Part shown: piece after piece, positions 1 to 62,003 of the stretch
Numbering within the stretch: the stretch's first letter is position 1
How the letters are laid out: the number at the start of each line of letters is the position of its first letter
Assembly: GCA_035546615.1 (NCBI GenBank)
Contig: DASZWM010000007.1
Span: forward strand, 1,451 to 65,450
DNA from: Minisyncoccota bacterium
GTDB lineage: Bacteria; Patescibacteriota; Minisyncoccia; Phycocordibacterales; SBAW01
Reading direction: 5' to 3'
DNA length: 64,000 nt
Notes under the pieces: model-generated
Database searches by the model: none
What the model saw: the letters and a program-made list of their open reading frames with translations, nothing else
What the model was told of the DNA's origin: nothing
Program-made: the position numbers and the translations under genes

Positions 1-3000
1 TCGAAGAGGCTAAGGAAGTAGGTAGCCGATGTGGTCGAGAACGCGTTGCCCTGGTTCTGGCTCAAGAAGTAGACGGCCGAGGTAGTACTGAAGCTGTTGG
101 CAAGATAGTACGAGCCTTCCTGTCCATCGAAGGTACCGGTCCAGTCGCCGGTGCGGTCCAAAGTGAGAACGCCACCAACGTTGGACAAGCCCGAGCCAGT
201 TAGGTCGGTAAAGGTCTCGTTGTTGATGCCGAAGGAAGTGGTGGTTGCGTTAGTGGAGAGCAGGTTCGGGAGGACGTTCTGTGCCGAGGTGGTGGCAATA
301 TAGTTTGCCGCAACTACCTGGCCGACTACCGAGAGCTTGCTGTACGGCGAGGTGGTGCCGATGCCGAAGTTGCCGGCAGGTGCGATGACGTTATTAGAAG
401 AGCCGACGGCGAGGTAGAGGTCATTAAGGCCGCCCGGGGTATAGATACCGGCATCGCTTGAACCGTCGACGTTGGTAGTGACGTGCGCGTCGCGGTTAAG
501 CGTGATGCCGGAGGTGAAGTAACCATATCCGCCGCTTACTTGCAGGGCGGCAAGCGGATTGCTGGTGCCGATGCCAACGTTGCCGCTAAAATATGCGCGG
601 CCAGTTGTGGTCGCCGGGCCGTTGACCGTAAGGCCGAGCGTGCCGTTGCCGATGGTCGAAGAAGCATTTACCTGGATGCCGAGAGTTGTTGTAGGCGTGA
701 GCGCGCCTGCAACTATCTTCCAGTCGCGGAACGTGTTGGCATAGTAGTTCTGTGAAGTAGTGCTGAACGCGTTGCCCTGGTTGACAGAGAGGAAGTATGC
801 GGCCGAAGTAGTAGAGAACGCCTGGCCCTGATTTTGCGCGAGGAAGTACAAAGCGCTGGTGGTCGAGAAGAAGTAGCCCTTGTCGAAGAGGCCGAGCGTC
901 GTGGTGGAGAGGCGCGAGTTGAACGAGTTCCAATCGCTTGATGAGAGGTAGCCGTCGGTAGAAGCGCCCGACTGGCTGATGGTAAACACGCCGGTCGACG
1001 GGTTGTACGAGAGCGGGCCGGTTGCCGAGAGCGAGGTCGAGGAGATCTTGTTGTTGAAGGTGGTCCAGTCAGTGCTTGAGAGATAGCCGTTCTGCGCGCC
1101 GTTGGCCTGCTGGATGGACAAGGTATTGCCGGAGAAGGAGAGCGGACTCGAGACCGTGGTCGAGATGACGGAACCGTTTGCATTTGTGGAGAGAAGAGTG
1201 TTCAGGAGGCTGGTGATGGCGAGATTGGTCGTTGTCGCCTGCTGGGTCGTAAAATTGCCGCTCGCGTCGATCCTGGTCAAGACCGTGCCGGCGTTATTGA
1301 GGAACTGCGCCAAGTCCGCGGTCTGGGCCGAAGCGCCCTGTACCGTAAAGACCTTCTTCGCGGCGCTTGAGTTAATGAGGCCGAAGAGCGATATAGGCAC
1401 CGTCGTATTGGTCCAATTGAGGTCGGTTATCTGGGTCGAAGACGCATTGAACTGCAGGCGGTTGAGCTGGGTGTCCGCGCCGTAGGTGCCGCCCATGAAG
1501 GTCGCGTTATTGTTGCTCGCGTTCGTTATCTGGAAGTACGTGGTCGAGGTCGCCGTGGCGCCGCCGCCCGTCCAGCCCCCGCTGTTATACACAACGCGCA
1601 GTTGGCCGCCGCCGCCCACGACATTGTCGCCCTTGAGGATGACGCCGTTGCCGGAGGTCTGGTTGTAGATGGTCGGGTTCGCGCCGACGGAGTTAAGCGT
1701 AAGCGTGTTGTTTGTAGAGTCGAATGCAAAGTCGGAATCATCGGTTATCTGGCTGCCTGCGCCGATAAAAGGCACGCGGCCGGCAGTGAGGCTCGTAACC
1801 CGCAGATTAGTGGTTGTCGCGGTGCCGTTTACCGTTAGGCCGCCGCCCGCCGCGCCGTTGCCAATCGTTGAGCTTCCGAAGACGCCGATGGATTGCACCG
1901 TCGAGCTTGGCGTGAGGAAGGCTGTAGCGCCGGAACCAACGATCTTCCAGTCACGGAACGCGTTGGCGTAGTAGTCCTGGGATGTGGTCGAGAATGCGCC
2001 GCCGGTCGAGGCCCAGTAATTTGCGGATGTGGTCGAGAAGAAGTAGCCCTTGTCGAAGAGAGCGAGCGTCGAAGTGGAGAGGCGCGAGTTGAAGGTGTTC
2101 CAGTCGGTCGACGAGAGATAGCCGTCGGTCGAGCCGCCGGACTGGCTGATAGAGAACACGCCGGTTGAGACATTGTACGAAAGCGGGCCGGTCGCGGAGA
2201 TAGAGGTGGAGCCGAGCAGGCCCAGCGTGTTGGTTGCAGTAAGGCTGTAGCCGCCGGTGCTGTTGCCTACCAGAATATTTCCGTACGAAGGAGCGGCCGA
2301 AAGTCCGGTGCCGCCGTACATGACGCCGAGCGATGAGGTTGCAACCACCGAGCCCTGCGCGTTGGTGGTAAGGAGCGCGGAGCGCACGCCGAGGATAGCC
2401 AGGCCGGTGGTCGTGGCGGTCGTCGTGGTGGAGTAGCGGCCGACGAAGTCGGTGAGCGTCGTGGTGCCCAAGACCGCGAGGCCGCCGCGGGAGAAGATGC
2501 CCGAGATGCCGACATTAATGCCCCCCTGCGCGTATATGTCGCCGCCGACATTGAGGTTGTCGGCAATGTTCGCAACGCCGACCTCAAGCGAGCCGATGTT
2601 GGCGGCCGGGAGCTTCGCGCCGTTTATATCGACCACCTTCACCGTACTGCTGTTGCTGGTGACGTAGGCGTATTTGCCCGAGAGGCTCAGGCCGCGCGGG
2701 TTGCCGCCGGTCGCGAACGTGCCGACCGAAGTGATGCTCGCGAGGTTGTGCACGTCGAGCACGACGAGGTTGCCGGACGTGTCGGTAACGTACGCGTAGT
2801 CGCCGGCCGCCTCAACCGTGTAGTAGCCGGTGCCGGTCTTGGAGCCCGCCAGGCTGATGGAGGCCGGGTTGCTTATGTCGAGCACGTAGAGGCCGCCGGA
2901 AGCGTCCGCAACATAGAGGTAGCGGCCGGACGCGTACAAGGTCGCCGGAACGCTCAGGCCGGTGTAGCTGTATACGGCCGTCGGGCTTGCCGGGTTGCTG

Positions 3001-6000
3001 ATGTCGACGGAAGTGACGGAGCCGTTGTAGATGGAGCCCACGTACAGGTACTTGCCCTGCACCGCGACCGAAGACCCCGAGCCGATAGGCGTGCCGGGGG
3101 ACGAGTACTGGCCCACGATAACGGGCGCCGCCGGGTTGGCGATGTCGACGATGTTGACCATGCCGGTGTCGAGGTTCGGCGCGTAGAGGTAGCGGCCGGA
3201 GAGCGCGAGCGAAATAGGATGGCCCGCGCCGGAGAGCGTGGAAACGAGGGTCGGTACCGCCGGGTTGGAGACGTCGATGATAACGAGACCCGCGGACGCG
3301 TCGCCGACGTACGCGTACTTGCCGGAGACTACGATGCTCTGCGCTTGGGTGGTGCCCGTGTAGGAGCCGACGAGCTTGGGGTTGCCCGGCTGGGTGATGT
3401 CGAGGATGCGCACGTTTCCGGCGGCAACGTAGGAGTAATGGCCGGAAGTGTTGATGCCGTATGAAGTCCCGCCGACTAAGGTCGAGGTCGCCAGGGTCGG
3501 CGTGCCGCTTGCCACCTGGAGTATATTGCCGCCCGCGACGGTGAGCTTCTGGGAAGGCGACGTGGTGCCGAAGCCGGCGAGACCGCCGAAGGACGCGATG
3601 CCCGAGTTGTAGAAGCCGGTCGTGGTGGCGTTGTCGATGGTCGCGCCTCCGACCACTTCGAGCTTGGAGAGCGTCGAGGTCGAGGTAAAGCCGATGAGCA
3701 CCTGGTCGGTCGCGGTCGTCAGGCGGATGCCCGAGCCGTTGAAGTGGGTCCAGTTGACGTCCGAGCCGGACGCGCCCGCGTCGGTGCCGCACTGGAATTG
3801 TCCGGTCGCGGAGTTCCATAGGAGCTTGTCGACCGAGCCGGAGCAGGAAGAGAGGTTGGCGCCGGTTATCCTGCCGTTTATGTACAGGTTCGTCGTGGTC
3901 GAAGTGCCGCTCGTAATGACATCGCCCGGGAAGGTATACACGCTCGAGGAATTGCCGCCGAAGGTTCCCGCCTGCGTGGTGATGACGCCGGTGGATGAGG
4001 TGTACGAGATGACCGACTGGCCCGAGAGGCTGGTCGAGGAGATCTTGTTGTTGAAGACGCTCCAGTCGGTATTTGTCAGGAAGCCCGGCTGGGAAGCGTT
4101 GGCCTTTTGAGCGCCGGCGTAGTCGATGGAGATAAGGCCGGCGCCGTTATCGTTGAAGTCGGACGAAGCGAAGGATGCGGCGCCCTTAGTGCTGCCGTCT
4201 GCCTTCGCGTCCTGAATGGAGAACGTGCCGGAGCTTGGGTTGTAGAACAGCGGCGCGGTGGCGTTGAGCGAGCCGGTCGTAACGAGGCCGAGGCTCGAGG
4301 TCGAGGTAAGCGTGTACGTACCATTGCTGTTGCCCACCAAAAGGTTTCCGTAGCTCGGAGGGGTCGAGAGTCCCGTGCCGCCGTAGATGACCGAGAGCGT
4401 CGACGTTGCCGACACGGCGCCGTTAATGGCCTGCAGGGGTCCGGTGATGTTGGAGATGGTTACGCCGCCGTTGAATGTGTTGCTGTTCGTAAACGTATTG
4501 CTGGAGTAGGTCTTCGGAATCGTGCTTGATGCGTCGACGAAATGGATAGCCGACGTGGTTGAGAAGAAATTGTTCTGCGTCTTCCAGTAGTCGGCCGAAC
4601 TGGTCGAGAAGCCGACGAGCGTCTGCTGGGAGAGGAAGTAAAGGGCTGATGTCGTGGAGAACGCCTGACCCTGATTGACAGAGAGGAAATATGAAGCAGA
4701 AGTCGTGGAGAAGAAATTATTCTGCGTCTTCCAGTAATCGGCCGAGGTGGTGGAGAACGAGTTCGCGAGGTAGTACGAGCCTTCCTGGCCGTCCAGCGTG
4801 CCCGTCCAGTCGCCCGCGCGGTCGAGCGTCAATGCGCCGCCGACATTCAGGAGGCCGGAGCCGGTGAGGTCGGTGAAGTACTCGGAGTTGAGACCCAGTA
4901 TCGCGGAGTACAGCGAGGTAGAGGTCGCGTTGGTGGTGGTGCCGAAGGTAACGGTGAGAGCGGAAATGGTCGACGACGAGTATGCGGTGAGGCCTGCGCC
5001 GAACTGCTGCAAGGCGGCCCAGGTATTCGAGTTCGAGAGGTTAAGGCCCCAATCGCTTATCCCCGCGCTGCCGTCATAGCTTGAGCCGGCGAGCGTCGCG
5101 TTGTGGGAAAGCGCGCTGAGGCTGGTGCCGAGCTGCTTGCCGCTGATGGTCGAGTTAGTAAGTCCCGCGTTATCGAGCGTGCCGGAAAGCGTAGGGGCGA
5201 ACGTGAATGCGCCGCCCGTGTTCGTTATCCTGATGCCGAGAGTCTGCCCGTTCTGCGTGAGCGTCGAGGTGGAAAGCGTAAGCGCGCCCGTCTGCGCCGT
5301 GCCGCCGCCGGTCTGCGAAAGCGACAGGACGCCGGTGTTTGAGATGACGCCCGTTGCGGGAACATAGCTGATGCCCGTACCCGCCGAGAGAGAAGTGGAG
5401 CCGAGCAGGCCCAGTGTGTTCGTGGCGGAGAGCGCGTAGCCGCCGGTGCCGTTCCCTACCAGAATGTTTCCGTACGACGGCGCTGCGGTCAGCCCCGTGC
5501 CTCCGTACAGGACGCCGACGGAAGAGGTTGCGGAAACTACGCCATTGATCGCCTGGAGCGGGCCGGTGAGGTTGGAGATAGTTACGCCGCCGTTGAAGGT
5601 ATTGGAATTCGTGAACGTGTTGGCGGTGTAGGTCTTCGGGATGGTCGTGGAAGACGTAACGAACCACATAGCGGAAGTGGTGGAGAAGAAGTTATTCTGC
5701 GTCTTCCAATAGTCTGCAGAGGTAGTCGAGAACGCAAGATTCTGGTTATTTGCTAGGAAGTAGAGGGCGGAGGTGGTGCTGAAGGCATTGCCCTGGTTCT
5801 GCGAGAGGAAGTATGCGGCGCTGGTGGTCGAGAAGAAATAGCCCTTGTCGAAGAGGCCGAGGGTGGAGGTGGAAAGGCGGCTGTTGAAGGAATTCCAGTC
5901 CGTGCTTGAGAGATAGCCGTCGGTCGAGCCGCCGGACTGGCTGATAGTGAAAATACCGGTCGAAGAGTTATAGGCGAGCGGCGCAAGTGCCGAGAGGCTG

Positions 6001-9000
6001 GCCGGGGTAAGGAAGCCGAGGCTGGATGTCGGCGCAAGGTCGTAGCCGCCTGCGCTGTTGCCCAGGAGCACCTGGCCGTAGGCCGGAGCGAGCGTGAGGC
6101 CGGTGCCGCCGTACACGACACCGATGCTCGTAGTTGCCGACACGAGGCCGTTAATAGCCTGCAGCGGCCCGGTGAGATTGGAAACGTACAGCGAGTCGAT
6201 GGTTGCGAGCGTTGTCGACGAAGTAAGGACGCGCGTGCTGGTGGCGAAGAAGCTGCTTGAGGTCGCGTTGGTAAACTTTGCCGTTGAGGGGGTCGTGGCG
6301 CCGATAGGCGTGCTGTTTATCGTGCCGTTCGAAATAGTGAGGTTGTCGGCTACGTACGCGTCGGCTACGATGCTGCCGTGCCAAACGCCGGTCGAGACGG
6401 TTCCGACGTTGGAGGAGCCGAGCACCGTCAGCGTGGTGAAGACCGCGCCCGGCGCGTTGAGCGTCGTGCCGTCGAAGGTGAAGGTATTGTCCCCGACGAC
6501 CGCGTCTTCCGCCTGGTTGGTGAAGAATATCTGTCCTGCAACGTACGTATCCGGCGCATCAGTGAGCCCGAGGAACGTGGTTGAGCCGCCTCCGCCGCCG
6601 GTGCCGCAGTCGCTGCCGGTGCCCGACACCACGCCCGCCGCGTTGACGCGCAAGCACTGCGTCGTACCGGTAATGGAGCCGAGCGTAAGTCCGCCCCCGA
6701 GCGTGAGCGCGCCGGTCGATGAGAACGTCGAGGTCGCCGTCGCGCCGAAGGAGGCCGACTGGTAGACCGAGAGCTTCGACGTGGAAGCCGCGTTGAACTG
6801 CTGGAGCTGGGACCAGGCGTTTGCGGTAGTGGTGCCGAAGGCGAGGCTGAACTGTCCGGTGGTCTGGTTGTACTGGACCGGGTACGAACCGGAGATGCTG
6901 GTGGTGCCGAGCTTGCCGTTGAAAAGGGTCCAATCGCTCGAGGAAAGATATCCGTTCGTTGAGCCGTTAGCCTGCGCGATGGAGAACACGCCGGTGTTCC
7001 CGTCGTACGAAAGCGGCGCGAGCGCGGAAAGCGACGATGTGGAGAGCAGGCCGTTGGCGGCGGCAAAGTAGCTTGCGGAAGTCGTGGAGAAGAAATTGCT
7101 GACCGACTTCCAGTACTCCGCGGAGGTGGTGCTGAAGGCATTGCCCTGGTTCTGCGAGAGGAAATACGCGGCCGAAGTTGTCGAGAACGCGTTGCCCTGG
7201 TTCTGGGCGAGGAAGTATGCGACGCTGGTGGTTGAGAAGAAATTATTCTGCGTCTTCCAGTAGTCAGTCGAGGTGGTCGAGAAGAAATTGCTGACAGACT
7301 TCCAGTACTCAGCGGATGTCGTGGAGAAGCCGGTCGAGGTGCCGCCGAACATGATGCCGAGGCTGGAGGTCGAGACGAGGTCGTAGCCGCCGGTTGCGTT
7401 TCCGACAAGCACCTGGCCGTAGGCCGGCGCGGTCGTCGTGCCGGTGCCGCCGTTTGCAACGCCGAGCGTGCCGCCGAGCACCAAAGTACCCGAGGACGTG
7501 ATGGGGCCGCCCGTGAAGGAGAGCCCGGTGGTGCCGCCGTTGGCTGCAACCGATGTTACCGAGCCGCCGCCCGAGCCGCCCAGGCCCAGAGTCGAGGTTG
7601 AGGTTACAGCCCACTTCACGCCGTCCCACACCAGCACGTCGCCGAACGCGCCGCCGCCGATGTGCGGCACCGTTGAGGAAGCGGAGATGTACGCGCCGAC
7701 AGCATAGTTGCTGGAAGTGGTGGAGAAGAAGTCGCGAGCCGTCTTCCAGTAGTCGGCGGAGGTGGTGGAAAATCCGCTAAGGCTCTGAAGCGAGAGGAAG
7801 TATGCCGCTGAGGTTGTAGAAAATGCCTGGCCCTGATTTTGGCTGAGGAAGTACGCGGCGGAGCTGGTCGAGAAGAAGTAGCCCTTGCCGATGGAGTCGA
7901 GATACGCCTGCGCGTTCTGCGGCGTGAAGTACAGGTTGGTGGCGCCTTCGTCGAGGCCGTCGGTCGTGGTCGCGTACCACGCGGAGAGCGACAGCTTCGA
8001 GTCAAGCGCGTTCTGGAGATCGGTTTGGTTGGAAAGCGTGCCGACGATATTGCCCCACGACGGATTGCCGCCCGCGGCGATGCCGAGCGTCGAGGTGGAA
8101 ACCAGGTCGTAGCCGCCCATGGAATTGCCGAGAAGGAGCTGGCCGTAGGTCGGGGCAGTGGAAGTGCCGGTGCCGCCGTTTATCGCATTGAGCACGCCGG
8201 AGAGCGTGAACGTGCCGGTCGACGTGATAGGCCCGCCGAGGAAGGAGAGGCCGGTCGTGCCGCCGCTTGCGTCAACCGACGTTACCGAGCCGTTCCCGCC
8301 GCCCGAATTGCCGCCGCCGTTGTGGCTGTGCGAAGGGTTCGGCGAAAGCGCCGCGGCCTCTATTTTCGGGAGAAGGAAATTCTGCAGCGCGAGCAGGCGG
8401 AGGTTGAGTATGTCTTCGGTGACGCCGGAACCCTGCACCAGACGCTCGGTAACCGGATAGGTGTTGTAGACCGGGTACGAGTTCTGGACGATCGTCGTGG
8501 TCGCGGTGCCTGCGGCGACCGGAGCAGACGGGCCGTACGCCGGCGAGGTCTGCGTGCCCGCCGCATACTGCGCGGGAACGCGCGGGCCGAAGAGGAACGA
8601 AAATACCTGCGAGAAGACATCGGACGCGACAGACGGCGATGACTTCGCCGGAAGGGAGAATCCGAACTGGAGCGGATGCGCCCCGAAGAACGGCGACTCC
8701 ACCTGCGCGAGCGACGCCGCAAGCGTGGTCTGGTTCTGCATCGCGACCTCGCGCTGGTGCATCGCGCCGGCGTACGCTACGGCGCCGAAGAGCAGCATGC
8801 CCCCCAGCGCCATCACCGCGTTGCGCGCCAGAAGCGAAGAGAAGCGCGAGGCGACGCCGTTCGCGGAAGGAACGGCGTCGGCCTCAACCGCCTTCTTCGC
8901 AGGCAGGCCGTTTGCCTTGCGGTACGTCTCGTTCTCAAGCTTGCGCTCCTTCGCTAACGCAGACGCGCGCTCAAGCTTTGCCTGAGCGCGCGCCGCCTCG

Positions 9001-9179
9001 AATTCTCCAAGGGACTTCTCCTCGACGAACCATGCGCCGTTTATCTGCGAGCCGCGCAGCTTGCCGTCGCGCAAAAGGCGGCCGACATAGTCCTGAGCGC
9101 AGTTCATCCGCTTGGCGGCAGAACGGGCCGAGAGCATCGGTTCGCCTGAATTTGAGATGATTTGTTTAGCGGGTGACAT
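1..9179 (-). CDS. Giant repetitive cell-surface protein, N-terminal 3,059 codons (gene continues past window position 1; no stop codon in window). Domains: cytoplasmic excisionase/HTH_17-like module, single TM helix, Ser/Thr/Gly-rich repeat modules, 7-repeat LVIVD beta-propeller
   Basis: Reverse-complement translation from ATG 9179-9177 (MSPAKQIISNSGEPMLSARSAAKRMNCAQDYVGRLLRDGKLRGSQINGAWFV...) stays open and protein-like down to position 3. There is an in-frame stop upstream at 9309-9311. No ORF-track entry between 1 and 9200 lies in this frame, since the track lists only ORFs closed inside the window. All listed ORFs there are R/P/A/S-rich off-frame artefacts. Recurring motifs: VSATSSxGVxYGGTGLxxAPSYGNxLVGNxTGGYxL, tandem FSTTSAxYFLSQNQGNA units, and GKYAYVxDxSGxLVVLDVxNPAxP. 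Confidence 0.85.
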   Translation of the reverse strand, partial: MSPAKQIISNSGEPMLSARSAAKRMNCAQDYVGRLLRDGKLRGSQINGAWFVEEKSLGEFEAARAQAKLERASALAKERKLENETYRKANGLPAKKAVEADAVPSANGVASRFSSLLARNAVMALGGMLLFGAVAYAGAMHQREVAMQNQTTLAASLAQVESPFFGAHPLQFGFSLPAKSSPSVASDVFSQVFSFLFGPRVPAQYAAGTQTSPAYGPSAPVAAGTATTTIVQNSYPVYNTYPVTERLVQGSGVTEDILNLRLLALQNFLLPKIEAAALSPNPSHSHNGGGNSGGGNGSVTSVDASGGTTGLSFLGGPITSTGTFTLSGVLNAINGGTGTSTAPTYGQLLLGNSMGGYDLVSTSTLGIAAGGNPSWGNIVGTLSNQTDLQNALDSKLSLSAWYATTTDGLDEGATNLYFTPQNAQAYLDSIGKGYFFSTSSAAYFLSQNQGQAFSTTSAAYFLSLQSLSGFSTTSADYWKTARDFFSTTSSNYAVGAYISASSTVPHIGGGAFGDVLVWDGVKWAVTSTSTLGLGGSGGGSVTSVAANGGTTGLSFTGGPITSSGTLVLGGTLGVANGGTGTTTAPAYGQVLVGNATGGYDLVSTSSLGIMFGGTSTGFSTTSAEYWKSVSNFFSTTSTDYWKTQNNFFSTTSVAYFLAQNQGNAFSTTSAAYFLSQNQGNAFSTTSAEYWKSVSNFFSTTSASYFAAANGLLSTSSLSALAPLSYDGNTGVFSIAQANGSTNGYLSSSDWTLFNGKLGTTSISGSYPVQYNQTTGQFSLAFGTTTANAWSQLQQFNAASTSKLSVYQSASFGATATSTFSSTGALTLGGGLTLGSITGTTQCLRVNAAGVVSGTGSDCGTGGGGGSTTFLGLTDAPDTYVAGQIFFTNQAEDAVVGDNTFTFDGTTLNAPGAVFTTLTVLGSSNVGTVSTGVWHGSIVADAYVADNLTISNGTINSTPIGATTPSTAKFTNATSSSFFATSTRVLTSSTTLATIDSLYVSNLTGPLQAINGLVSATTSIGVVYGGTGLTLAPAYGQVLLGNSAGGYDLAPTSSLGFLTPASLSALAPLAYNSSTGIFTISQSGGSTDGYLSSTDWNSFNSRLSTSTLGLFDKGYFFSTTSAAYFLSQNQGNAFSTTSALYFLANNQNLAFSTTSADYWKTQNNFFSTTSAMWFVTSSTTIPKTYTANTFTNSNTFNGGVTISNLTGPLQAINGVVSATSSVGVLYGGTGLTAAPSYGNILVGNGTGGYALSATNTLGLLGSTSLSAGTGISYVPATGVISNTGVLSLSQTGGGTAQTGALTLSTSTLTQNGQTLGIRITNTGGAFTFAPTLSGTLDNAGLTNSTISGKQLGTSLSALSHNATLAGSSYDGSAGISDWGLNLSNSNTWAALQQFGAGLTAYSSSTISALTVTFGTTTNATSTSLYSAILGLNSEYFTDLTGSGLLNVGGALTLDRAGDWTGTLDGQEGSYYLANSFSTTSADYWKTQNNFFSTTSASYFLSVNQGQAFSTTSALYFLSQQTLVGFSTSSADYWKTQNNFFSTTSAIHFVDASSTIPKTYSSNTFTNSNTFNGGVTISNITGPLQAINGAVSATSTLSVIYGGTGLSTPPSYGNLLVGNSNGTYTLTSTSSLGLVTTGSLNATAPLFYNPSSGTFSIQDAKADGSTKGAASFASSDFNDNGAGLISIDYAGAQKANASQPGFLTNTDWSVFNNKISSTSLSGQSVISYTSSTGVITTQAGTFGGNSSSVYTFPGDVITSGTSTTTNLYINGRITGANLSSCSGSVDKLLWNSATGQFQCGTDAGASGSDVNWTHFNGSGIRLTTATDQVLIGFTSTSTLSKLEVVGGATIDNATTTGFYNSGIASFGGLAGFGTTSPSQKLTVAGGNILQVASGTPTLATSTLVGGTSYGINTSGHYSYVAAGNVRILDITQPGNPKLVGSYTGTTQAQSIVVSGKYAYVGDASAGLVIIDVSNPAVPTLVSTLSGAGHPISLALSGRYLYAPNLDTGMVNIVDIANPAAPVIVGQYSSPGTPIGSGSSVAVQGKYLYVGSIYNGSVTSVDISNPASPTAVYSYTGLSVPATLYASGRYLYVADASGGLYVLDISNPASISLAGSKTGTGYYTVEAAGDYAYVTDTSGNLVVLDVHNLASITSVGTFATGGNPRGLSLSGKYAYVTSNSSTVKVVDINGAKLPAANIGSLEVGVANIADNLNVGGDIYAQGGINVGISGIFSRGGLAVLGTTTLTDFVGRYSTTTTATTTGLAILGVRSALLTTNAQGSVVATSSLGVMYGGTGLSAAPSYGNILVGNSTGGYSLTATNTLGLLGSTSISATGPLSYNVSTGVFSISQSGGSTDGYLSSTDWNTFNSRLSTSTLALFDKGYFFSTTSANYWASTGGAFSTTSQDYYANAFRDWKIVGSGATAFLTPSSTVQSIGVFGSSTIGNGAAGGGLTVNGTATTTNLRVTSLTAGRVPFIGAGSQITDDSDFAFDSTNNTLTLNSVGANPTIYNQTSGNGVILKGDNVVGGGGQLRVVYNSGGWTGGGATATSTTYFQITNASNNNATFMGGTYGADTQLNRLQFNASSTQITDLNWTNTTVPISLFGLINSSAAKKVFTVQGASAQTADLAQFLNNAGTVLTRIDASGNFTTQQATTTNLAITSLLNTLLSTNANGSVISTTVSSPLSFSGNTLSIQQANGAQNGYLSSTDWTTFNNKISSTSLSATGPLSYNPSTGVFTISQSGASTDGYLSSSDWNSFNSRLSTTTLGLFDKGYFFSTTSALYFLAQNQGQAFSTTSAAYFLSVNQGNAFSTTSQNYYANTFRDWKIVAGALTPTTTLGIQVNASSTIGNGTLGLTVNGPATTTGRAYFSGNVGIGTSNPLAALQVSGGYGYFTSGITLNRDAHVTTNVDGSSDAGIYTPGGLNDLYLAVGSSNNVIAPAGNFGIGTTSPYSKLSVVGQVVAANYIATTSAQNVLPNLLSTNATTTSFGINNETFTDLTGSGLSNVGGVLTLDRTGDWTGTFDGQEGSYYLANSFSTTSAVYFLSQNQGNAFSTTSATYFLSLF
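2620..3480 (-). repeat. Seven tandem LVIVD repeats (beta-propeller) inside the giant gene
   Basis: Translated units read HYSYVAAGNVRILDITQPGNP / GKYAYVGDASAGLVIIDVSNPAVP / GRYLYAPNLDTGMVNIVDIANPAAP / GKYLYVGSIYNGSVTSVDISNPASP / GRYLYVADASGGLYVLDISNPASI / GDYAYVTDTSGNLVVLDVHNLASI / GKYAYVTSNSSTVKVVDINGAKL. Confidence 0.75.
8999..9134 (-). other. Excisionase/HTH_17-like helix-turn-helix module at the N-terminus of the giant protein (aa ~15-60), followed by a predicted TM helix at ~8762-8843
   Basis: LSARSAAKRMNCAQDYVGRLLRDGKLRGSQINGAWFVEEKSLGEF aligns with the excisionase-family HTH consensus (..AAelLgvsrstvyrlikeGklpaikiGgrWrirredLeaf). A hydrophobic stretch LLARNAVMALGGMLLFGAVAYAGAM follows about 50 aa later. 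Confidence 0.55.
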
Positions 9180-9485
9180 GTTGCCGAAAAAACTTTTGTT
9201 TGTGCGGAGAGTTCGGGTATTTCGTGTTTCAACAGAAGAGGTAGCGACCCGCCGATGTGCCGCTACCCTGTTACTAATTATTTTACGCGAGTGTCGCGCT
9301 TTTTCCGTCTATAATATGCGAAGAAAAATGTGGATATCTTATTGCACTGCAACGGAATTTTGAAAATTTATTTTCAAAAAATAATCAGCTTAAAATGAGT
9401 TTGCTGTTTAAAATTCCATGAAAAAATATTCGGCTTACATACCCTTTTCTCGTCTTAAAAATTGTATAGGAGAGATATGTTGTAA

Positions 9486-9554
9486 TCAAAAGCTACATCG
9501 GCTCTCCCATACGATATCTCGGATAACTTCTCGGCTAATCTCGGATAGCTTCAT
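9486..9554 (-). CDS. Possible 22-aa small ORF (MKLSEISREVIRDIVWESRCSF) preceded by a perfect AGGAGGT, in the AT-rich region upstream of the giant gene
   Basis: ATG at 9554-9552, TGA at 9488-9486. AGGAGGT sits at 9572-9566 with an 11-12 nt spacer, which is long. Too short for the ORF track. Confidence 0.15.
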   Translation of the reverse strand: MKLSEISREVIRDIVWESRCSF

Positions 9555-9600
9555 AATGCTATTTTACCTCCTAAGTATGCCGGAGGGGCAAAAAACCAAG

Positions 9601-9649
9601 TTCTAGTATTAAAAACGGCGTCTTTTGACAAGTTGTCAAACTGACGCCG
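9601..9649 (-). terminator. Rho-independent terminator downstream of the 279-aa HTH/TM protein gene
   Basis: Long hairpin cggcgtc-ttttgacaa-g-ttgtcaaa-ct-gacgccg (9616-9649), followed on the minus strand by UUUUUAAUACU. The loop region itself is a TTGACAAgTTGTCAA palindrome. Confidence 0.6.
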
Positions 9650-9688
9650 AATACTAAATAAAATATGAATTCGAAAATCTGACGCGAT

Positions 9689-10528
9689 CTAATGCAAAGA
9701 GTAGCCGACGCTTGCGGTCTTCCCCGCTTCTATGACCGTCGTTGAATTGACGAGCAGTGAGCTCAGCGCGACGACCGCGAACACGACGGCGCCGAGCGTC
9801 ATGATGCTGAATGCCGGCATGAGCATGCCGACGGAATATTTTTTTGACGGCGCGTATTCCGTTATTGTCACTTCCTCGTCCGCGTCCTCTTCTGCCGCTT
9901 TCGGCATGACCGACGCTTTCGCTTTTTTGCTTGCGGGCTTCTGTATTTCCGGCAGCGAAGGCGCCGCGTCTTCTATATAGCGCAGGCCCGTCTTTTTCTT
10001 TGTCTCCGCAAGGCGTATCGGGATATGTATAGATTCGCGCGCCGCTTCGGGCTCTATCTCCACAAAAACTTTTTCTTCCGCCTCTTCAACTTTTATTTCT
10101 TCAGGCGCGAAGTCTGCTATCAGCTCTTCCACTTGGATCGGGCGGCGGAAACTTTGTATCGGTTCCGGAATGACGGGAGCAGTCGCCTCAGCTTCGGTCT
10201 CCTCTTCTTCAGCTGTCTCTTCTTCTTTTTCCGCAGCCGGCTCCGGCTTCTCTTCCTCGGTCTCAGCGGGTTCCGGAACTTCTTCAGCCGCTTCGGCACG
10301 CACGACGGGCGCTACCGAAAGTATCTTCTTCGGCTCCTCCGCCGGCTTCGGGTTCTTGAGGTAGTCAGCCAGAAACTCGGCATCCACATACCAGGAGCGG
10401 CCCACTTTCTGGCCCACTATCTTTTTGGCGCGTATGAGCTGGCCGATATAGTCGGCATGGTATTTATACTGCTTTGCGGCAAGCCGAGTCGAGATATACC
10501 GCTTGCCCGAGATTTCCAGTTCGTCCAT
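9689..10528 (-). CDS. Tail-anchored membrane protein with N-terminal excisionase/HTH_17-like module, long acidic E/P/A-rich linker and C-terminal TM helix. Paralogous at the N-terminus to the giant protein
   Basis: ISGKRYISTRLAAKQYKYHADYIGQLIRAKKIVGQKVGRSWYVDAEFLADYL matches the same HTH-like motif as the giant protein. A low-complexity EEPKK/AEEE linker follows. C-terminal hydrophobic segment is MLMPAFSIMTLGAVVFAVVALSSLLV. Confidence 0.7.
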   Translation of the reverse strand: MDELEISGKRYISTRLAAKQYKYHADYIGQLIRAKKIVGQKVGRSWYVDAEFLADYLKNPKPAEEPKKILSVAPVVRAEAAEEVPEPAETEEEKPEPAAEKEEETAEEEETEAEATAPVIPEPIQSFRRPIQVEELIADFAPEEIKVEEAEEKVFVEIEPEAARESIHIPIRLAETKKKTGLRYIEDAAPSLPEIQKPASKKAKASVMPKAAEEDADEEVTITEYAPSKKYSVGMLMPAFSIMTLGAVVFAVVALSSLLVNSTTVIEAGKTASVGYSLH

Positions 10529-10582
10529 GCACTTAGAATATACCTCTGGCCGAGGTACGCAAGCAAGGGGCGGAAAATGAGC

Positions 10583-11992
10583 CTAGCCGAGAATCTTTAT
10601 GAAAACCTCGCGAAGGACGCCGGGATTGCCTGCGCCCTTTGTTTCCTTCATTCCCTGCCCTATCAGGAATTGGAGCGATGCGGTCTTCCCCGCTTTGTAG
10701 TCGGCCGCAACCTGTGGATAAGCGTCGATGATCTTCTGAGCGACGGCCTCAAGCGCGCCGGCATCAGACTGCTGAATATATTTCTTTGAAACCTCCGCAA
10801 GATCGCCGCCGTTCGCGAACACGTCCGCAATAGCGTCTTTGGCGCCGCGCGAAGATATGTCATTTTTTGAAAGCATGGCCATGAGCGCGCTCAGGCCTTC
10901 CGGCGTTATGTGCGCGAGCCCTGCCTCCCCCGCTTTCGCCGCGAGCCCGACAATGTCGGAGCCGATATAATTCGCCAGCAGTTTTTTAGCTTCCGGCGCA
11001 AGCGCGGACGCTTTTTCAAAAAGGTTTCCCAGCCGCTCGTCGGCGACGAACATTTCCGCATATTCCGGATTGATGCCTTCAGCAACGTACCTTTCACGCT
11101 TGGCCCACGGCAGCTCCGGCAGCTCTCTTTTCAGCGTCTCAAGCGAGTATTCGGGGAGTTCCGAGAGCTTGAGCTTCGGCAGGTCCGGGTCCGGGAAGTA
11201 ACGGTAGTCGTGGGAGGACTCCTTCTTGCGCTGGGAAAATGTTTCCTGCTTCGCCTCGTCCCAGCCGCGGGTTTCCTGCACCACCTTCTCTCCCCTTTCG
11301 AGGAGCTGGGCTTGGCGCTTGGCCTCAAAAGCGATGGCTCGCTCGACCGAGCGGAACGAGTTGAGGTTCTTTACCTCTACCTTCGTGCCGAGATTCTCGT
11401 CAGAACTTATGGAAATGTTGGCTTCAACACGCATCTCCCCCTTCTCCATATTCGCCTCCCCTGCCCCGAGCGTGCGAAGAAGGAGCTGCAATTCCCGGGC
11501 AAAGCGGCCGGCCGTCTCGGCATCATGGATGACCGGCTCGGTAACGAGCTCCATAAGGGGCACCCCGGCGCGGTTATAGTCCACTAGGCTTTTCTCGCCT
11601 TCGTGCTGGGAGCGGGCGGTGTCTTCCTCAAGGTGTATGCGGGTAAGCTCCACCCCGGCGAGATTCCCCCCCGAGACGAGCGGATACTGGTATTGGCTTA
11701 TCTGGTAGCCCTTGGGAATGTCGGGGTAGAAGTAATTCTTGCGGTCGAACTCGGTAAAGTCGGCGAGATTGCCGCCAACAGCGGTGCCCATAAGCAGTAC
11801 CTTATGCACGGCGTCCTTGTTTATGACCGGCAAAGTTCCCGGATGCGCCATGCACACCGGGCAGATATTGAGGTTGGGCGTCTTCTCGTCAGGATCGTTG
11901 AGGCACGCGCAGAACATCTTGGTCTGGGTCTTGAGCTCTGCGTGCACCTCGAGCCCTACGGTCAGTCGATACTCGGCCATATATAGAGGCAA
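10583..11992 (-). CDS. gatB: Asp-tRNA(Asn)/Glu-tRNA(Gln) amidotransferase subunit B
   Basis: 469 aa. MAEYRLTVGLEVHAELKTQTKMFCAC..NICPVCMAHPGTLP..YFYPDIPKGYQISQ. C-terminal GatB/YqeY-type domain. Confidence 0.95.
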   Translation of the reverse strand: MPLYMAEYRLTVGLEVHAELKTQTKMFCACLNDPDEKTPNLNICPVCMAHPGTLPVINKDAVHKVLLMGTAVGGNLADFTEFDRKNYFYPDIPKGYQISQYQYPLVSGGNLAGVELTRIHLEEDTARSQHEGEKSLVDYNRAGVPLMELVTEPVIHDAETAGRFARELQLLLRTLGAGEANMEKGEMRVEANISISSDENLGTKVEVKNLNSFRSVERAIAFEAKRQAQLLERGEKVVQETRGWDEAKQETFSQRKKESSHDYRYFPDPDLPKLKLSELPEYSLETLKRELPELPWAKRERYVAEGINPEYAEMFVADERLGNLFEKASALAPEAKKLLANYIGSDIVGLAAKAGEAGLAHITPEGLSALMAMLSKNDISSRGAKDAIADVFANGGDLAEVSKKYIQQSDAGALEAVAQKIIDAYPQVAADYKAGKTASLQFLIGQGMKETKGAGNPGVLREVFIKILG

Positions 11993-12051: not shown

Positions 12052-14151
12052 TTACTGCCCCAGCAGATAGAGCTGCCTGACCTCCGCAGCCGGGAGCGCG
12101 CGGTTGTAGACGCGCACATCGTCGAGCTTGCCGTTGAAGGTATACATAGCCCCGCTTCCGTTTCCCATGCTGCCGATATATGTATTAAAAGAAGCGGGCG
12201 TACCGGGATCGGTGGTCTGCGCGGAGGAAGCATCGAGGGAGCCGTTGATGTATATTTTCTTTGTCGCCCCGTCGTAGGTAAAGACGACATGCGTCCATGT
12301 AGAAGTCGCTATCGTAGCGGCGGATACGATCTGGCTCAGCGAACTGTTCCAAATGCCTCCCGAGACCTTTCCTGCTTGTATGTACATATCTATGCCTTTG
12401 TACGTGCCGCAGCAGTCCCGGGCGTTGCTGTACACGTAGTTGTATAGATAGGTCTGAGGAGTATTGTCGTATATCCATGCGGAAATAGTAAATCGGCTCG
12501 GGGTCAGCGAATTGCTGCTGCCCACATTTATTCCGCCGGTATTCATCCCGCTAAAACTGAACCCCTGTCCCATCCTGCCTATCGTCTTGCGGCTCGAAGT
12601 GGCGTTGTTGGTACCGACTAAGTATCCATTAAAACCACTCCCCGAACGGTCGTACACCTTGTCGGTTACGTCCGGCCCGTCGAAGGTCCAGAGGCCGACC
12701 AGCCCGCTTGAGAGGCTGCTGTCGGAAGACAAGTCGGGTGAAGGCGTATTTATCTGTGCGGTACCCTGCCTATATAAGGCCGCTATTTCCGCCGCCGAGA
12801 GCGCGCGGTCGTAGATGCGCACATCGTCCATGAGGCCGCCGAAGAACGAGGCGGAAGGATTGATATTGGCGTCCTTGCCGATAAAGAGGACGCTCGGTGC
12901 TGTGAGCGACTGGGTCCCCCCGGTACCCGTGTTGTCAAGAACCCCGTTCACGTACACTGTCATGGCGCCGGTCGATTTGACGCGGGTCGCGGTTACGAGC
13001 ACCCAATTGCCTGTGTTAACATCGGCATTCGAGAATACGGTCGTATCAGAGTTACCGACGCCGAAAGCAAGTTTGCCGTTATAAACCGTCATGCCGAAGT
13101 CGTTCGTTACGCCCCCGACTTCGCCGTCTACTATCCCCTGCCCGCAGTACCATTGCCCTGCGCAGCCCGCGGTATTCTGCGTCGTCTTTATCCATGCGGA
13201 GAGCGTGAAGTCGTCCGATACGGTGCGATTGACGGGTATATAGCTGGTGCTCCCGTCGAACAAGAGCGCCTTGCCGTGCTTTCCGCTTGCCCAGGCCGGA
13301 AGCGTCGAGCCGGAGAGCGTCCCGTCGTTGCTATTGCCGCTTGAGTCCCCCGCAATAGTACCCGTACCCTCGTTGAAGTCCCACGAGCCGACGAGGCCGA
13401 CGTTGTTAGGCGCGCGCACCTGCGCCGCCCCGCCCCTGTACAGAGCGACGATTTCCGCATCCGACAACGCGCGATTGTAGAAACGGAAATCATCAATCGT
13501 CCCGACGGTAGGCTCGCCGCCCGAATACTTTCCCAATATCCAGGAAGACTTCGCAATGCTGGTGGTGTCTGTCTGGGCGCTTCCCAGTGACGCGCCATTC
13601 ACAAAAACGGACACATTCGAGCCGCTTCTCTTTGCAACAATGTTGTACCAAACGCCTGCCGCGGGGGTAAACGGCCAGCTGAGCGTATGAGGCCCGGAAG
13701 GCGTTCCCCGTATGTATAGCATCACCACATGCGCCGTATTATCGAACTCGATCAATACTCCGGCGGTTCCCGCATATCCGCCGTCAAATGTCGTCTGGTA
13801 GCGCGCGGGGAAGCCGTCGAACCTGATCCAATGAGAAATAGTAAAATCTCCCGTTCCTATCTGGAATGCGTCGCTGACCGGGATGCTTACGTAATTGTCG
13901 CTGTTCGTGAATGAAAGGCCCTTGCTGAACCTGCCCGTAACCCATGTTGGCAGCGTGGTGCCCGAGAGCGTGCCTATGTGGCCGTTCCCGCTCAAATCGC
14001 CCAGCTTAGTTCCCGAGGCGTCGTTGAAGCTCCAGTACGCTATGAGCCCTAAATTATTCGCGGGTTTGGCAAGCGCGGCGGCCTGCGCGGCGGCGGGCAG
14101 AAAAAATGCCGCGAATATGAAACATATCGCGATGCCGGGAAATACCCTCAT
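12052..14151 (-). CDS. Secreted protein with four tandem concanavalin-A-like lectin/glucanase (LamG-like, Laminin_G_3-type) domains
   Basis: Signal peptide MRVFPGIAICFIFAAFFLPAAAQA. Four ~170-aa repeats each contain WxFNExSGTxxxDxSGNxNxGTLSG ... DDxRxYNRALSxAEIxxLY. Confidence 0.8.
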   Translation of the reverse strand: MRVFPGIAICFIFAAFFLPAAAQAAALAKPANNLGLIAYWSFNDASGTKLGDLSGNGHIGTLSGTTLPTWVTGRFSKGLSFTNSDNYVSIPVSDAFQIGTGDFTISHWIRFDGFPARYQTTFDGGYAGTAGVLIEFDNTAHVVMLYIRGTPSGPHTLSWPFTPAAGVWYNIVAKRSGSNVSVFVNGASLGSAQTDTTSIAKSSWILGKYSGGEPTVGTIDDFRFYNRALSDAEIVALYRGGAAQVRAPNNVGLVGSWDFNEGTGTIAGDSSGNSNDGTLSGSTLPAWASGKHGKALLFDGSTSYIPVNRTVSDDFTLSAWIKTTQNTAGCAGQWYCGQGIVDGEVGGVTNDFGMTVYNGKLAFGVGNSDTTVFSNADVNTGNWVLVTATRVKSTGAMTVYVNGVLDNTGTGGTQSLTAPSVLFIGKDANINPSASFFGGLMDDVRIYDRALSAAEIAALYRQGTAQINTPSPDLSSDSSLSSGLVGLWTFDGPDVTDKVYDRSGSGFNGYLVGTNNATSSRKTIGRMGQGFSFSGMNTGGINVGSSNSLTPSRFTISAWIYDNTPQTYLYNYVYSNARDCCGTYKGIDMYIQAGKVSGGIWNSSLSQIVSAATIATSTWTHVVFTYDGATKKIYINGSLDASSAQTTDPGTPASFNTYIGSMGNGSGAMYTFNGKLDDVRVYNRALPAAEVRQLYLLGQ

Positions 14152-19761: not shown

Positions 19762-19866
19762 TTCGAGAGGATATTCTCGCTCTTCTACAGGAAGAAGAGC
19801 GAGTCGCGCATTATCTGCGCTTCTTTGCGGCCTTCTTTGCCTTCTTTTTCTTTGCCATAATTTTTG

Positions 19867-19882: not shown

Positions 19883-20022
19883 AATTTAAGTGTTGCACCG
19901 ATCGACCTTGTTTTTTGCGCGCTCGCGAGGGACGTCGCAAGAACAATGCTCGATGCCCTACATACCAGTATTGTTCATTGCGTATCGATGCACAATGAAA
20001 AAAAGATTTCTAGTGTGGATAA

Positions 20023-54237: not shown

Positions 54238-55264
54238 GTTCGAAAGAGCCCGTCGTGAGTATCGACTCCGATATATCCGCCGGCAGGTCGGGCGCTATAA
54301 GGTCCGCTAGCACCGCTTTTGTAGTCGTTGCATTCGCAATCGAAGCTTCTTTGAATGTATTCACGCCTGTAAGGCTGAAACGGATTTTATCGCTTGAGAA
54401 CTCTATGCCGACGGCCAGCCCTCGCCGCACTTCGGGCTTCCACCCCTGATCGAAGATAAAGTTGCCGAGCGAGTAAAATATTGCCTTGTTTTTGTAGATC
54501 TCCACAGGCTCCACGATATGCGGATGCGCGCCGATAACGACATCGACTCCCGCATCTATGAACATATGCGCCGCATTGCGCTGCGCCTGCGTGGGCTCAT
54601 GCTGGTATTCTTCGCCCCAGTGCGCTACAAGCACTATGTGCGAACATTCCGGACGAATTCGCGCTATTTCCTCAAGCATCGAGGAGGGGTTCGGATCGTA
54701 CAACTGATGAAAGCCGACCAGGCATAGTGTCTTGCCGTTTACCTGAAGTGCGGCCGAAATATTCTCGTTGTTAAGCGGCGACCCAAAGAAAGAAATTCCC
54801 TGCCCGCTCAGATATTGAGTAGTCTGCGCATAGCCGGACTTTCCGAAGTCAAGCGCGTGGTTATTCGCCAGGGAAACCGCATCGAATCCGGCGTCCTTCA
54901 GCACAGCCGCGTACTTCGGGTCGAACGTGAAGCGCAAAACAGTCGAGCTTGCCTGCGATAGGGAAGGGTTTGTCGTAATAGAACCTTCTAAATTCCCCAC
55001 TCGCAGATCGTAGCCCTGAAACAATTCTCGAACGCCTGCAAAGAGCGCCTCGTCCCCCGCGGCTCGCGCATGCGTCGCCACCGTTCGGTCGAGCATGATG
55101 TCCCCCACGAAAAGAGCAGTGAAAGAAGGCTCGGGCAGCGATATATACGCAGTGCGGACTATCTGTACAAGCGCGTCATGCAGCCGCTCGGGCCATAACA
55201 CAGCGGCGGCGCCTAATATGACGAGTACCGTCAAAAAGCATCGGAGAAGCCATGCATTCTTCAT
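54227..55264 (-). CDS. CapA-family (PGA_cap) metallophosphoesterase-like protein with N-terminal signal anchor
   Basis: FVGDIMLDR..NLEGSIT..SLANNHALDFG..GAHPHIVEP..SLGNFIFDQ. Confidence 0.85.
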   Translation of the reverse strand: MKNAWLLRCFLTVLVILGAAAVLWPERLHDALVQIVRTAYISLPEPSFTALFVGDIMLDRTVATHARAAGDEALFAGVRELFQGYDLRVGNLEGSITTNPSLSQASSTVLRFTFDPKYAAVLKDAGFDAVSLANNHALDFGKSGYAQTTQYLSGQGISFFGSPLNNENISAALQVNGKTLCLVGFHQLYDPNPSSMLEEIARIRPECSHIVLVAHWGEEYQHEPTQAQRNAAHMFIDAGVDVVIGAHPHIVEPVEIYKNKAIFYSLGNFIFDQGWKPEVRRGLAVGIEFSSDKIRFSLTGVNTFKEASIANATTTKAVLADLIAPDLPADISESILTTGSFELAK

Positions 55265-61964: not shown

Positions 61965-62003
61965 GATGTGGATAAAAAGGGGCCGGTCGTTTCCAACCGG
62001 CCC
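61965..62003 (-). terminator. Intrinsic terminator after the cold-shock gene
   Basis: gggccgg-tcgtttccaa-ccggccc followed on the minus strand by CUUUUUAUCC. Confidence 0.55.

Follow-up and report, generated by a model that had tools for sequence, protein, structure and literature searches.

Much of bacterial diversity belongs to the Patescibacteria, whose very small genomes show few regulators that can be recognised and which are believed to live attached to other cells. Among their proteins the giant ones of the surface are the foremost candidates for this attachment, and to our knowledge neither the anchoring nor the control of these proteins has been described. Here we analyse a stretch of 64,000 nucleotides (nt) from a Minisyncoccota bacterium (contig DASZWM010000007.1 of assembly GCA_035546615.1, positions 1,451 to 65,450 of the forward strand; hereafter the window, in whose own numbering DNA positions are given), in which two adjacent minus-strand genes, one encoding a protein of 279 amino acids (aa) and the other a giant protein, share an N-terminal module of the helix-turn-helix (HTH) type, are each predicted to cross the membrane once, and enclose an AT-rich spacer carrying a palindromic motif. 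The genes, both of them open reading frames (ORFs), and their modules are the following.

9689 to 10528, minus strand: small gene, 279 aa, with an N-terminal winged-helix module, an acidic disordered linker and a C-terminal tail-anchor helix.
10355 to 10528, minus strand: module copy 1 (small-protein residues 1-58), with beta-hairpin, helix-turn-helix, wing and third helix, almost invariant across the family.
9180 to 9688, minus strand: AT-rich spacer, 509 base pairs (bp) in the window.
1 to 9179, minus strand: giant gene, partial, more than 3,059 aa by translation, with the module, a long helix, one transmembrane (TM) helix and an ectodomain with FSTTSAxYF and LVIVD repeats.
9000 to 9179, minus strand: module copy 2 (giant residues 1-60).

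The giant ORF opens with the ATG at 9179 on the minus strand and runs for 3,059 codons without a stop until it leaves the window at its left end. Along the minus strand the gene order is Wzy_C/TPR, murB, secA, NUDIX, dsbD, obg, a LamG protein, gatB, the 279-aa gene, the 509-bp spacer and the giant. For the 279-aa protein 439 homologues were found in Paceibacterota/Parcubacteria, all of them annotated as hypothetical protein, and the protein itself is 100% identical to a database "hypothetical protein" of a Candidatus Paceibacterota metagenome-assembled genome. NCBIfam holds no model for the full-length small protein or for the full-length giant. When relatives of the giant were sought with its first 290 residues, a single match was returned because low-complexity words crowded the candidate list, and a five-sequence N-terminal alignment performed better.

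A preliminary description of this DNA had noticed a motif shared by the N-termini of the two proteins. The shared region is confirmed as a module of about 55 aa, which aligns without gaps at 34% identity over 50 residues (pairwise BLASTP, E = 2e-12), with one detail corrected, namely that the module begins at residue 1 in both proteins, where a conserved beta-strand extension (MDELEISGKRY / MxPxKKIISxxGEP) stands ahead of the HTH. Six-frame translation of the 64-kb window yields two copies only. The pair, with its two module subtypes, is found again in about 50 further species, so the likeness is not a matter of chance. Among homologues of the small protein the N-terminal 57 residues are almost invariant (K9, R10, S13, Y23, D26, Y27, G29, Q30, R33, K36, K41, G43, R44, W46 and Y47 strictly so in alignment A1), and the linker that follows is variable, acidic and disordered.

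AlphaFold2 modelling of the N-termini, which the same description had proposed, gives a winged helix in both cases. For residues 1-60 of the small protein the predicted local distance difference test (pLDDT) score is 84-94 and the order is strand-strand-helix-helix-strand-strand-helix; for residues 1-100 of the giant it is 82-98, with the same winged helix, itself at 85-98, running on into a long helix at residues 54-90. The module matches the fold expected of HTH_17 (strand-helix-turn-helix-two-stranded wing-helix), and in structure comparison the predicted folds match BldC, Xis, RdfS, MerR and RacA. Its net charge is +3 to +4, and its conserved positions coincide with those conserved in HTH_17. 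The excisionase/HTH_17 likeness that had been put forward stands at the level of the family and of the fold, and does not extend to the curated cut-offs for the two window copies, whose scores are weighed below. HTH_17 is matched at E <= 0.01 by 50 of 63 modules from related loci (best E 3.3e-9), and the positional orthologue of the giant at locus L071 lies above the curated cut-offs with 33.3 bits for HTH_17 and 32.4 bits for TIGR01764. Another family protein (P0148) scores 31.3 bits in the profile test of HTH_17/TIGR01764 membership, and a precomputed PF12728 match is present on seven of 17 orthologous giant-type N-terminal fragments, one of which is named "helix-turn-helix domain-containing protein" by NCBI. 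The window copies have no MerR or MerR_1 Pfam match and no match to an XRE-type profile, and HTH_31 weakly matches three of the 63 family members. Membership of the HTH_17/excisionase superfamily thus appears clear at the family level, and as to fold class the models show what is predicted to be a cytoplasmic, MerR-like/excisionase-type winged HTH of the HTH_17 superfamily, BldC/Xis-like with an extra N-terminal strand. A KxYKxGKxW-type signal-peptide motif was also considered for this region and rejected, given the winged-helix fold of the region and a hydrophobic helix that comes at least about 60 residues beyond the module end.

Outside the module, five further protein features concern the attachment to the membrane and its surroundings.

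8910 to 9020, minus strand: long charged helix of the giant (residues 54-90), AlphaFold2 pLDDT 97-98, directly continuing the third module helix.
8763 to 8825, minus strand: TM helix of the giant (about residues 119-139), a type II signal anchor by hydropathy scan.
8682 to 8711, minus strand: extracellular juxtamembrane motif LAQVESPFFG of the giant, with Q, F, F and G invariant in alignment A2 and conserved in alignment A5.
9950 to 9988, minus strand: linear motif GLRYIxDxxPxxP in the disordered linker of the small protein (residues 181-193), with L182, Y184 and P193 invariant in alignment A1.
9728 to 9823, minus strand: C-terminal TM helix of the small protein, the tail anchor (AlphaFold2 helix 236-267).

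The hydropathy scan finds exactly one TM helix in essentially every module-bearing protein. The layouts originally proposed are borne out for both proteins, the giant consisting of the motif, one TM helix and a huge ectodomain, and the 279-aa protein of the motif, an acidic linker and a C-terminal tail anchor on which the AlphaFold2 helix and the hydropathy scan agree. In 50 orthologous giants the TM helix starts a median of 98.5 residues past the module start, and in 62 homologues of the small protein a median of 24.5 residues remain between the TM helix and the C-terminus, including a conserved tail of about 12-18 aa (EAGKxASxGYSL). Within the 18 residues flanking the TM helix, lysine plus arginine average 3.2-3.7 on the N-terminal side versus 0.6-1.1 on the C-terminal side over all members, 3.3 versus 0.64 in the small proteins and 3.2 versus 0.87 in the giants, where the N-terminal flank is the richer in 43 cases and the poorer in none. 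Taken together, the N-terminal flank is the richer in 123 of 135 proteins and the C-terminal one in a single protein. No N-terminal signal peptide was found in module-bearing proteins. By the positive-inside rule, with one TM helix and no signal peptide, the module should therefore be cytoplasmic, the giant a type II bitopic protein and the small protein tail-anchored; this topology signal places the module inside the cell in the N-in orientation, as the preliminary description had supposed. In the long helix of the giant several arginines are invariant, R64 and R79 among them, and so is E82. A motif similar to that of the linker, Y[IL]xDxxPxxP, is present in distant tail-anchored two-module proteins, and GLRYIxDxxPxxP looks like a docking site for a partner.

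LVIVD is detected in the ectodomain of the giant with E = 1e-49 and 6 repeats. The ectodomain (window positions 1-8600) also contains many short FSTTSAxYF/W(L)xxNQGxAF repeats together with 'GGTG(L/T)...YG(Q/N)(L/V)L(V/L)GN' blocks, and a strong positive GC skew (0.16-0.22) is seen on the plus strand along the whole gene. An orthologous giant of 5,279 aa (P0139; locus L086, 6001-21840) has a Peptidase_S74 domain listed after its LVIVD repeats. Because Peptidase_S74 is the intramolecular chaperone of phage tail fibres and spikes, this hints that the giant ectodomain is perhaps trimeric and tail-fibre-like.

To see how widely the pair occurs, one genome per GTDB species was scanned, which gave 141 confirmed matches and 80 loci kept, and hmmsearch was run on the six-frame translations of these loci. 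At about 50 non-redundant loci a small-type module (97-125 bits) precedes a giant-type module that heads a long ORF of the same strand, the exceptions being mostly contig ends, so that the expected conservation of the module in orthologues is found for both proteins in about 50 species. The order in these roughly 50 Paceibacterota species is obg-gatB-small-spacer-giant. Giants of distant relatives, with 2,733, 6,201 and 5,279 residues, likewise start with the giant-type module. In divergent Patescibacteria, including an Elulimicrobiota genome, obg and gatB are followed by a tail-anchored module protein of about 300 aa and then by a protein of about 250 aa made up of the module, a TM helix and a 130-aa ectodomain; such a gene of about 250 aa stands at the giant position, after a short spacer, at loci L064, L065, L067, L071, L074, L075, L080 and L083. 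Because divergent lineages carry the 250-aa version at this place, the giant can be regarded as the positional counterpart of a small bitopic protein with a lineage-specifically expanded ectodomain. To judge from this distribution the cassette is core and vertically inherited. In one lineage a gene for an 80-aa soluble MerR/HTH_17 protein (locus L085, 7396-7638) lies between gatB and the two-module membrane protein. Many records with the Paceibacterota-type cassette (among them L010, L011, L014 and L022) bear the title 'uncultured Candidatus Saccharibacteria' and one (L066) that of 'Gammaproteobacteria', in both cases probably in error.

A survey for other module-bearing proteins, also suggested at the outset, was carried out by searching the module profile against 1.84 billion representative proteins, and revealed 8,041 clusters at E <= 1e-3, of which 3,956 reach E <= 1e-10, with very different C-terminal fusions. 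From the top-scoring 150 listed representatives, 149 were retrieved and re-scanned (P0138-P0286). All 149 carry tandem modules (e.g. P0148, P0145, P0216, P0201), two in number and in one case three; exactly one TM helix is predicted in 130 of them, most are 300-420 residues long, and four are two-module giants of 3,277-5,279 residues (P0139, P0141, P0142, P0143). The few representatives with source names are Patescibacteria. The tandem duplication, along with the two-gene arrangement, suggests a domain that works in pairs. The survey thereby defines about 4,000 clusters of membrane-tethered HTH_17 proteins, which the databases label as hypothetical or as generic helix-turn-helix.

Between the two genes lies DNA of a composition unlike that of the locus. 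In the window the GC content is 0.38 over 9138-9688 (551 bp, including the first 14 codons of the giant) versus 0.60 for the locus, and in 50 species the spacers have a median length of 522 bp and a GC content of 0.29-0.49 (0.29-0.44 in 49 of the 50) versus 0.46-0.64 for the loci. The deficit amounts to 10-25 points relative to the surroundings in most species and to only 3-5 points in two (L008, L054), and the length is unusual for a reduced genome. Rfam gave no match at E <= 1 over the spacer and both gene starts, hence no known RNA family. The elements recognised in the spacer are as follows.

9496 to 9544, minus strand: operator-like array, consisting of the palindrome with CCGAGAT (9538-9544), CCGAGAA (9528-9534) and CCGATG (9496-9501), spaced 10, 12 and 21 bp.
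9511 to 9522, minus strand: 12-bp palindrome CCGAKATMTCGG, which reads CCGAGATATCGT in the window.
9461 to 9489, minus strand: sigma-70-like promoter candidate TTGATT-17-TACAAT from a consensus scan, directly downstream of the array and with the half-site ATATCTC in the promoter spacer.
9329 to 9336, minus strand: DnaA-box-like TATCCACA, a single copy on the gene-sense strand, present in 44 of 49 spacers at a fixed position.
9184 to 9216, minus strand: 5' leader element CCGAACTnnCTGnnnAAACAAAAGnnTTTTCGG, directly before the ATG of the giant, from an alignment of 45 spacers.

Allowing at most two mismatches, 53 palindrome sites were counted in 38 of 49 spacers, 13 of them perfect, as compared with a mean of 1.5 and a maximum of 6 in shuffled sequences. 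The underlying 7-mer is 4.6-fold enriched with respect to the flanks, and its copies are 11, 21-22, 32-33, 43 and 53-57 bp apart; as these spacings are multiples of about 10.5 bp, the copies come to lie on one face of the helix. The exact 11-mer is unique in the window, and the palindrome shows no enrichment elsewhere in the 64 kb; a second near-perfect palindrome at 54268-54279 is inside an ORF and was judged to be chance. In the 10-kb flanks of the other loci, clusters of three motif hits number 25 outside the spacer, in about 27 times more sequence, versus 18 inside, and most of those outside either cover the start of the small gene itself or lie upstream of it by no more than about 2 kb. 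Inspection by eye shows the element order of the window array and promoter in most spacers. An ORF of 22 codons that has a strong AGGAGG site (9485-9553, minus strand) and overlaps the array was dismissed: its peptide is not conserved in other species, and the conservation is at the level of the DNA motif.

Further downstream, most spacers have TATCCACA some 150 nt ahead of the MLSAR methionine of the giant; in the window the distance is 200 nt to that methionine and about 150 nt to the ATG at 9179. The word occurs four times in the window versus 0.64 expected (9329-9336, 10713-10720, 20014-20021 and 61967-61974), always on the minus strand, and three of the four copies fall between genes, each ahead of a minus-strand gene and with a T-run after it. 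When one mismatch is allowed, DnaA-box-like sites show no enrichment in the window. In the spacers a -10-like TAnAAT is found about 43 bp beyond TATCCACA (TAAAAT at 9280-9285 in the window), and TATCCACA looks like a promoter-associated element rather than part of an origin. A replication origin, considered on account of the AT-rich spacer and its TATCCACA, was rejected: TATCCACA is single, always on the same strand and at a fixed distance to the gene, and the word also stands upstream of other genes in promoter-like surroundings. In the leader element CCGAACTnnCTGnnnAAACAAAAGnnTTTTCGG the CCGAA and TTCGG ends could pair, with no covariation seen, and in 19 of 50 spacers AAACAAAAG keeps a constant place (-63 to -66).

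The second place where the motif is found is the start of the small gene, where codon preferences in 60 species were compared with the background.

10537 to 10542, minus strand: -10-like TATATT, 8 nt upstream of the ATG of the small gene.
10481 to 10519, minus strand: codons 4-16 with synonymous constraint and half-sites ATMTCG(G) at 10507-10513 and 10489-10495.
Leu4: CTA in 65%, background 5%.
Glu5: GAA in 90%, background 47%.
Ser7: TCG in 98%, background 22%.
Lys9: AAG in 87%, background 44%.
Ser13: TCG in 90%, background 22%.

Synonymous sites past codon 17 are mostly near the background. The constrained DNA, CTAGAAATMTCGGGnAAGCGrTAyATCTCG, includes two half-sites of the palindrome motif, and half-sites are also enriched at -60..-1 of the small gene (24 observed versus 3.5 expected). 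In 56 of 62 loci only 6-10 nt separate the end of a TATACT-type hexamer from the ATG, and this closeness of a -10-like hexamer to the ATG suggests that the transcript of the small gene is leaderless or near-leaderless. Both cassette promoters thus carry a locus-specific, palindromic and helically phased motif, the copies of which are candidate operators. The codon constraint could reflect an operator inside the coding sequence or else an RNA pairing site; in the latter case AUCUCGG at the 5' end of the small gene's mRNA could pair with the CCGAGAU copies in the spacer, and this would explain the constraint.

Regarding what the pair does, we tentatively favour the reading, plausible rather than probable, that two membrane-tethered winged helices read the palindrome at their own locus, for autoregulation, for tethering of the locus at the membrane, or for both. 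From adjacency, co-occurrence and family precedent we infer that the module binds DNA, that it is the factor which recognises the palindrome, and that a regulatory outcome follows. One partner of the cassette is the tail-anchored protein, with its module, disordered acidic linker and TM helix, and the other the type II bitopic protein, with its module, long charged helix, TM helix and an ectodomain that in Paceibacterota reaches 3,000-6,000 residues. Fixed to the membrane on its inner face, the two modules would bind CCGAKATMTCGG as a pair or in larger oligomers; their targets would be the phased copies that precede the giant gene in the AT-rich spacer and the half-sites near the small gene's start. 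The cassette would thereby regulate itself, or its locus would be kept at the membrane site of giant export, or both. This reading is supported by the fact that all close structural relatives of the module bind DNA: BldC and Xis bind cooperatively to repeated sites, while RacA and the MerR proteins bind palindromes as dimers (PMC5859096). The proposal of ToxR/CadC-like signalling or DNA tethering made in the preliminary description gains support, if not proof, from the conserved palindromic, operator-like motif that adjoins the genes; the alternative offered there, a sorting or anchoring domain, may also apply.

Several observations weigh against this reading. The window copies of the module stay below the HTH_17 (PF12728) cut-off, with 19.5-20.1 bits versus 27 (E of about 1e-3), and below that of TIGR01764, with 20.2 and 19.7 bits versus 28.8, and a profile search of PDB sequences with the module gave insignificant matches only (E at least 0.4). 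The palindrome is absent from 21 loci with only divergent modules (3 stray matches in 262 kb); since these lineages keep the module pair without it, a DNA target would not be the same throughout. Downstream of the palindrome only three of 38 spacers fit a strict promoter pattern, for which reason the promoter is claimed for the window alone. Moreover, palindrome and HTH are linked by adjacency and co-occurrence, and another regulator could bind the site; the constrained codons could reflect a feature at the RNA level; and the small-protein module is more conserved than most transcription-factor domains, which would also fit a conserved protein partner.

Comparison with known systems shows both what is shared and where the pair departs from them. 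BldC, Xis and RdfS are small and soluble, whereas the module here has an extra N-terminal strand or hairpin and is always fused to a single TM helix with a tail or a giant ectodomain, its candidate target is a palindrome and not direct repeats alone, and no integrase or mobile element is nearby. Classical MerR regulators have a winged helix with a directly attached long helix, like helix 54-90 of the giant, and align over 77-98 residues including this helix; their palindromic sites are inside promoter spacers, and the promoter-like spacer here contains a half-site. However, MerR-family proteins possess an effector-binding domain, which the module proteins lack, and the long helix is found in the giant only, where it leads into the TM helix. 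The layout of a cytoplasmic N-terminal DNA-binding domain, one TM helix and an extracytoplasmic domain is shared with ToxR, CadC, TcpP and VtrA, which act from the membrane on nearby promoters and among which VtrA/VtrC and ToxR/ToxS form two-gene cassettes (PMC10269533, PMC9214523). In that class, however, the domain is of the OmpR/PhoB type (Trans_reg_C), as against only HTH_17-type Pfam matches and MerR-like/excisionase structural neighbours here; the outer sensor is small, as against a fibre-like ectodomain of 3,000-6,000 residues; and the partner has no DNA-binding domain, as against a DNA-binding-type domain in both partners. In its mode of action the cassette would be most like ToxR/CadC/VtrA, and it stands outside the class, because its domain is HTH_17 and not of the OmpR type.

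Membrane-tethered DNA-binding domains are already known as a kind; what is new here is the palindrome in the spacer and the half-sites with codon constraint. The earlier remark that no family of this architecture had been described agrees with full-text searches of the literature, in which no description of a module-TM family or of its architecture was found. In a survey of transmembrane regulators the text is without HTH_17, excisionase, PF12728 and Patescibacteria, 'MerR' appearing as an author name in the references only, and a preprint on giant genes has no mention of an N-terminal helix-turn-helix. The finding suggests a direct, so far undescribed link between the cell envelope and DNA in an ultrasmall bacterium, and offers a concrete hypothesis for the laboratory, with two 60-residue domains and a 12-bp palindrome as candidate operator at the same locus.

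Among the alternatives, one is that the HTH has been exapted, the module no longer binding DNA and instead docking or anchoring envelope proteins, the giant among them, to a conserved partner in the cytoplasm such as the cytoskeleton, division or secretion machinery. RodZ provides the model: it is a bitopic protein with an N-terminal cytoplasmic HTH, one TM helix and an outer domain, and its HTH binds MreB, i.e. a protein rather than DNA. The HTH of RodZ, however, is of the XRE type (HTH_25) and has no sequence or structural match to the module here, so that only the overall layout is shared. The near invariance of the small-protein module beside the divergence of the remainder of the protein would suit such a role, as would the constant association of the module with one TM helix and very different C-terminal parts in about 4,000 clusters, the conserved housekeeping neighbourhood secA-obg-gatB, and the linker motif Y[IL]xDxxPxxP, which points to a protein partner. 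Nevertheless, the close structural relatives are all DNA binders, the conserved basic residues and net positive charge are as expected of a DNA-binding HTH_17, and the conserved, palindromic and phased motif with its codon constraint would be left unexplained at the locus; we regard exaptation as unlikely.

Somewhat less likely still is a general chromosome-to-membrane tether of the RacA/Noc kind, in which the modules would bind many chromosomal sites and position or segregate the nucleoid of these very small cells, in place of regulating their own locus. The fold resembles RacA, the small protein has a DNA-binding-type head, a long flexible linker and a membrane anchor, and its gene appears core and vertically inherited. 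The likeness to RacA of Bacillus subtilis includes a MerR-like winged helix, a palindrome-binding dimer, a long helical region, a link from DNA to the membrane or pole (PMC5859096) and a structural match here. Yet RacA, unlike the pair here, is soluble, reaches the membrane via DivIVA, has many origin-near sites and has no surface-protein partner. Against a general tether, palindrome sites are concentrated at the cassette without enrichment in the rest of the window, and most of the three-hit clusters outside the spacer sit at the small gene's start or shortly upstream of it, as described above.

The favoured reading of palindrome recognition by the two modules can be carried further, to a surface-to-DNA device operating Patescibacteria-wide, in which, in ultrasmall and probably host-attached cells, events at the end of the ectodomain (host contact, tension or export itself) would be passed through the TM helix to the winged-helix pair on its own palindromic operators, with transcription control, or a physical coupling of gene and export site (transertion), as the result. 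We consider this extension improbable in its full form; if true, about 4,000 membrane-tethered HTH_17 proteins would replace classical one- and two-component signalling in the reduced genomes of Patescibacteria.

Least probable is proteolytic release, whereby the ectodomain would sense contact or force and intramembrane cleavage would free the module, with the tail-anchored paralogue as competitor or partner: the domain order is that of membrane-bound transcription factors, the TM helix is rich in Gly and Ala, and relatives of the giant carry the auto-processing domain Peptidase_S74, a domain type used by the eukaryotic membrane-tethered factor MYRF (PMC3828593), but S74 is listed after the LVIVD repeats and hence in the ectodomain, not between module and TM helix, no protease gene is linked to the cassette in the loci inspected, and no cleavage site can be inferred.

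Two minor observations concern the neighbouring genes. Between obg and gatB the window contains a gene for a 699-aa protein with three LamG/Laminin_G_3 domains (12052-14151, minus strand), which is missing from the syntenic loci inspected. In the murB-secA spacer a tiny ORF at 19811-19858 on the minus strand encodes MAKKKKAKKAAKKRR, and TTATCCACA is found about 160 nt upstream of it.

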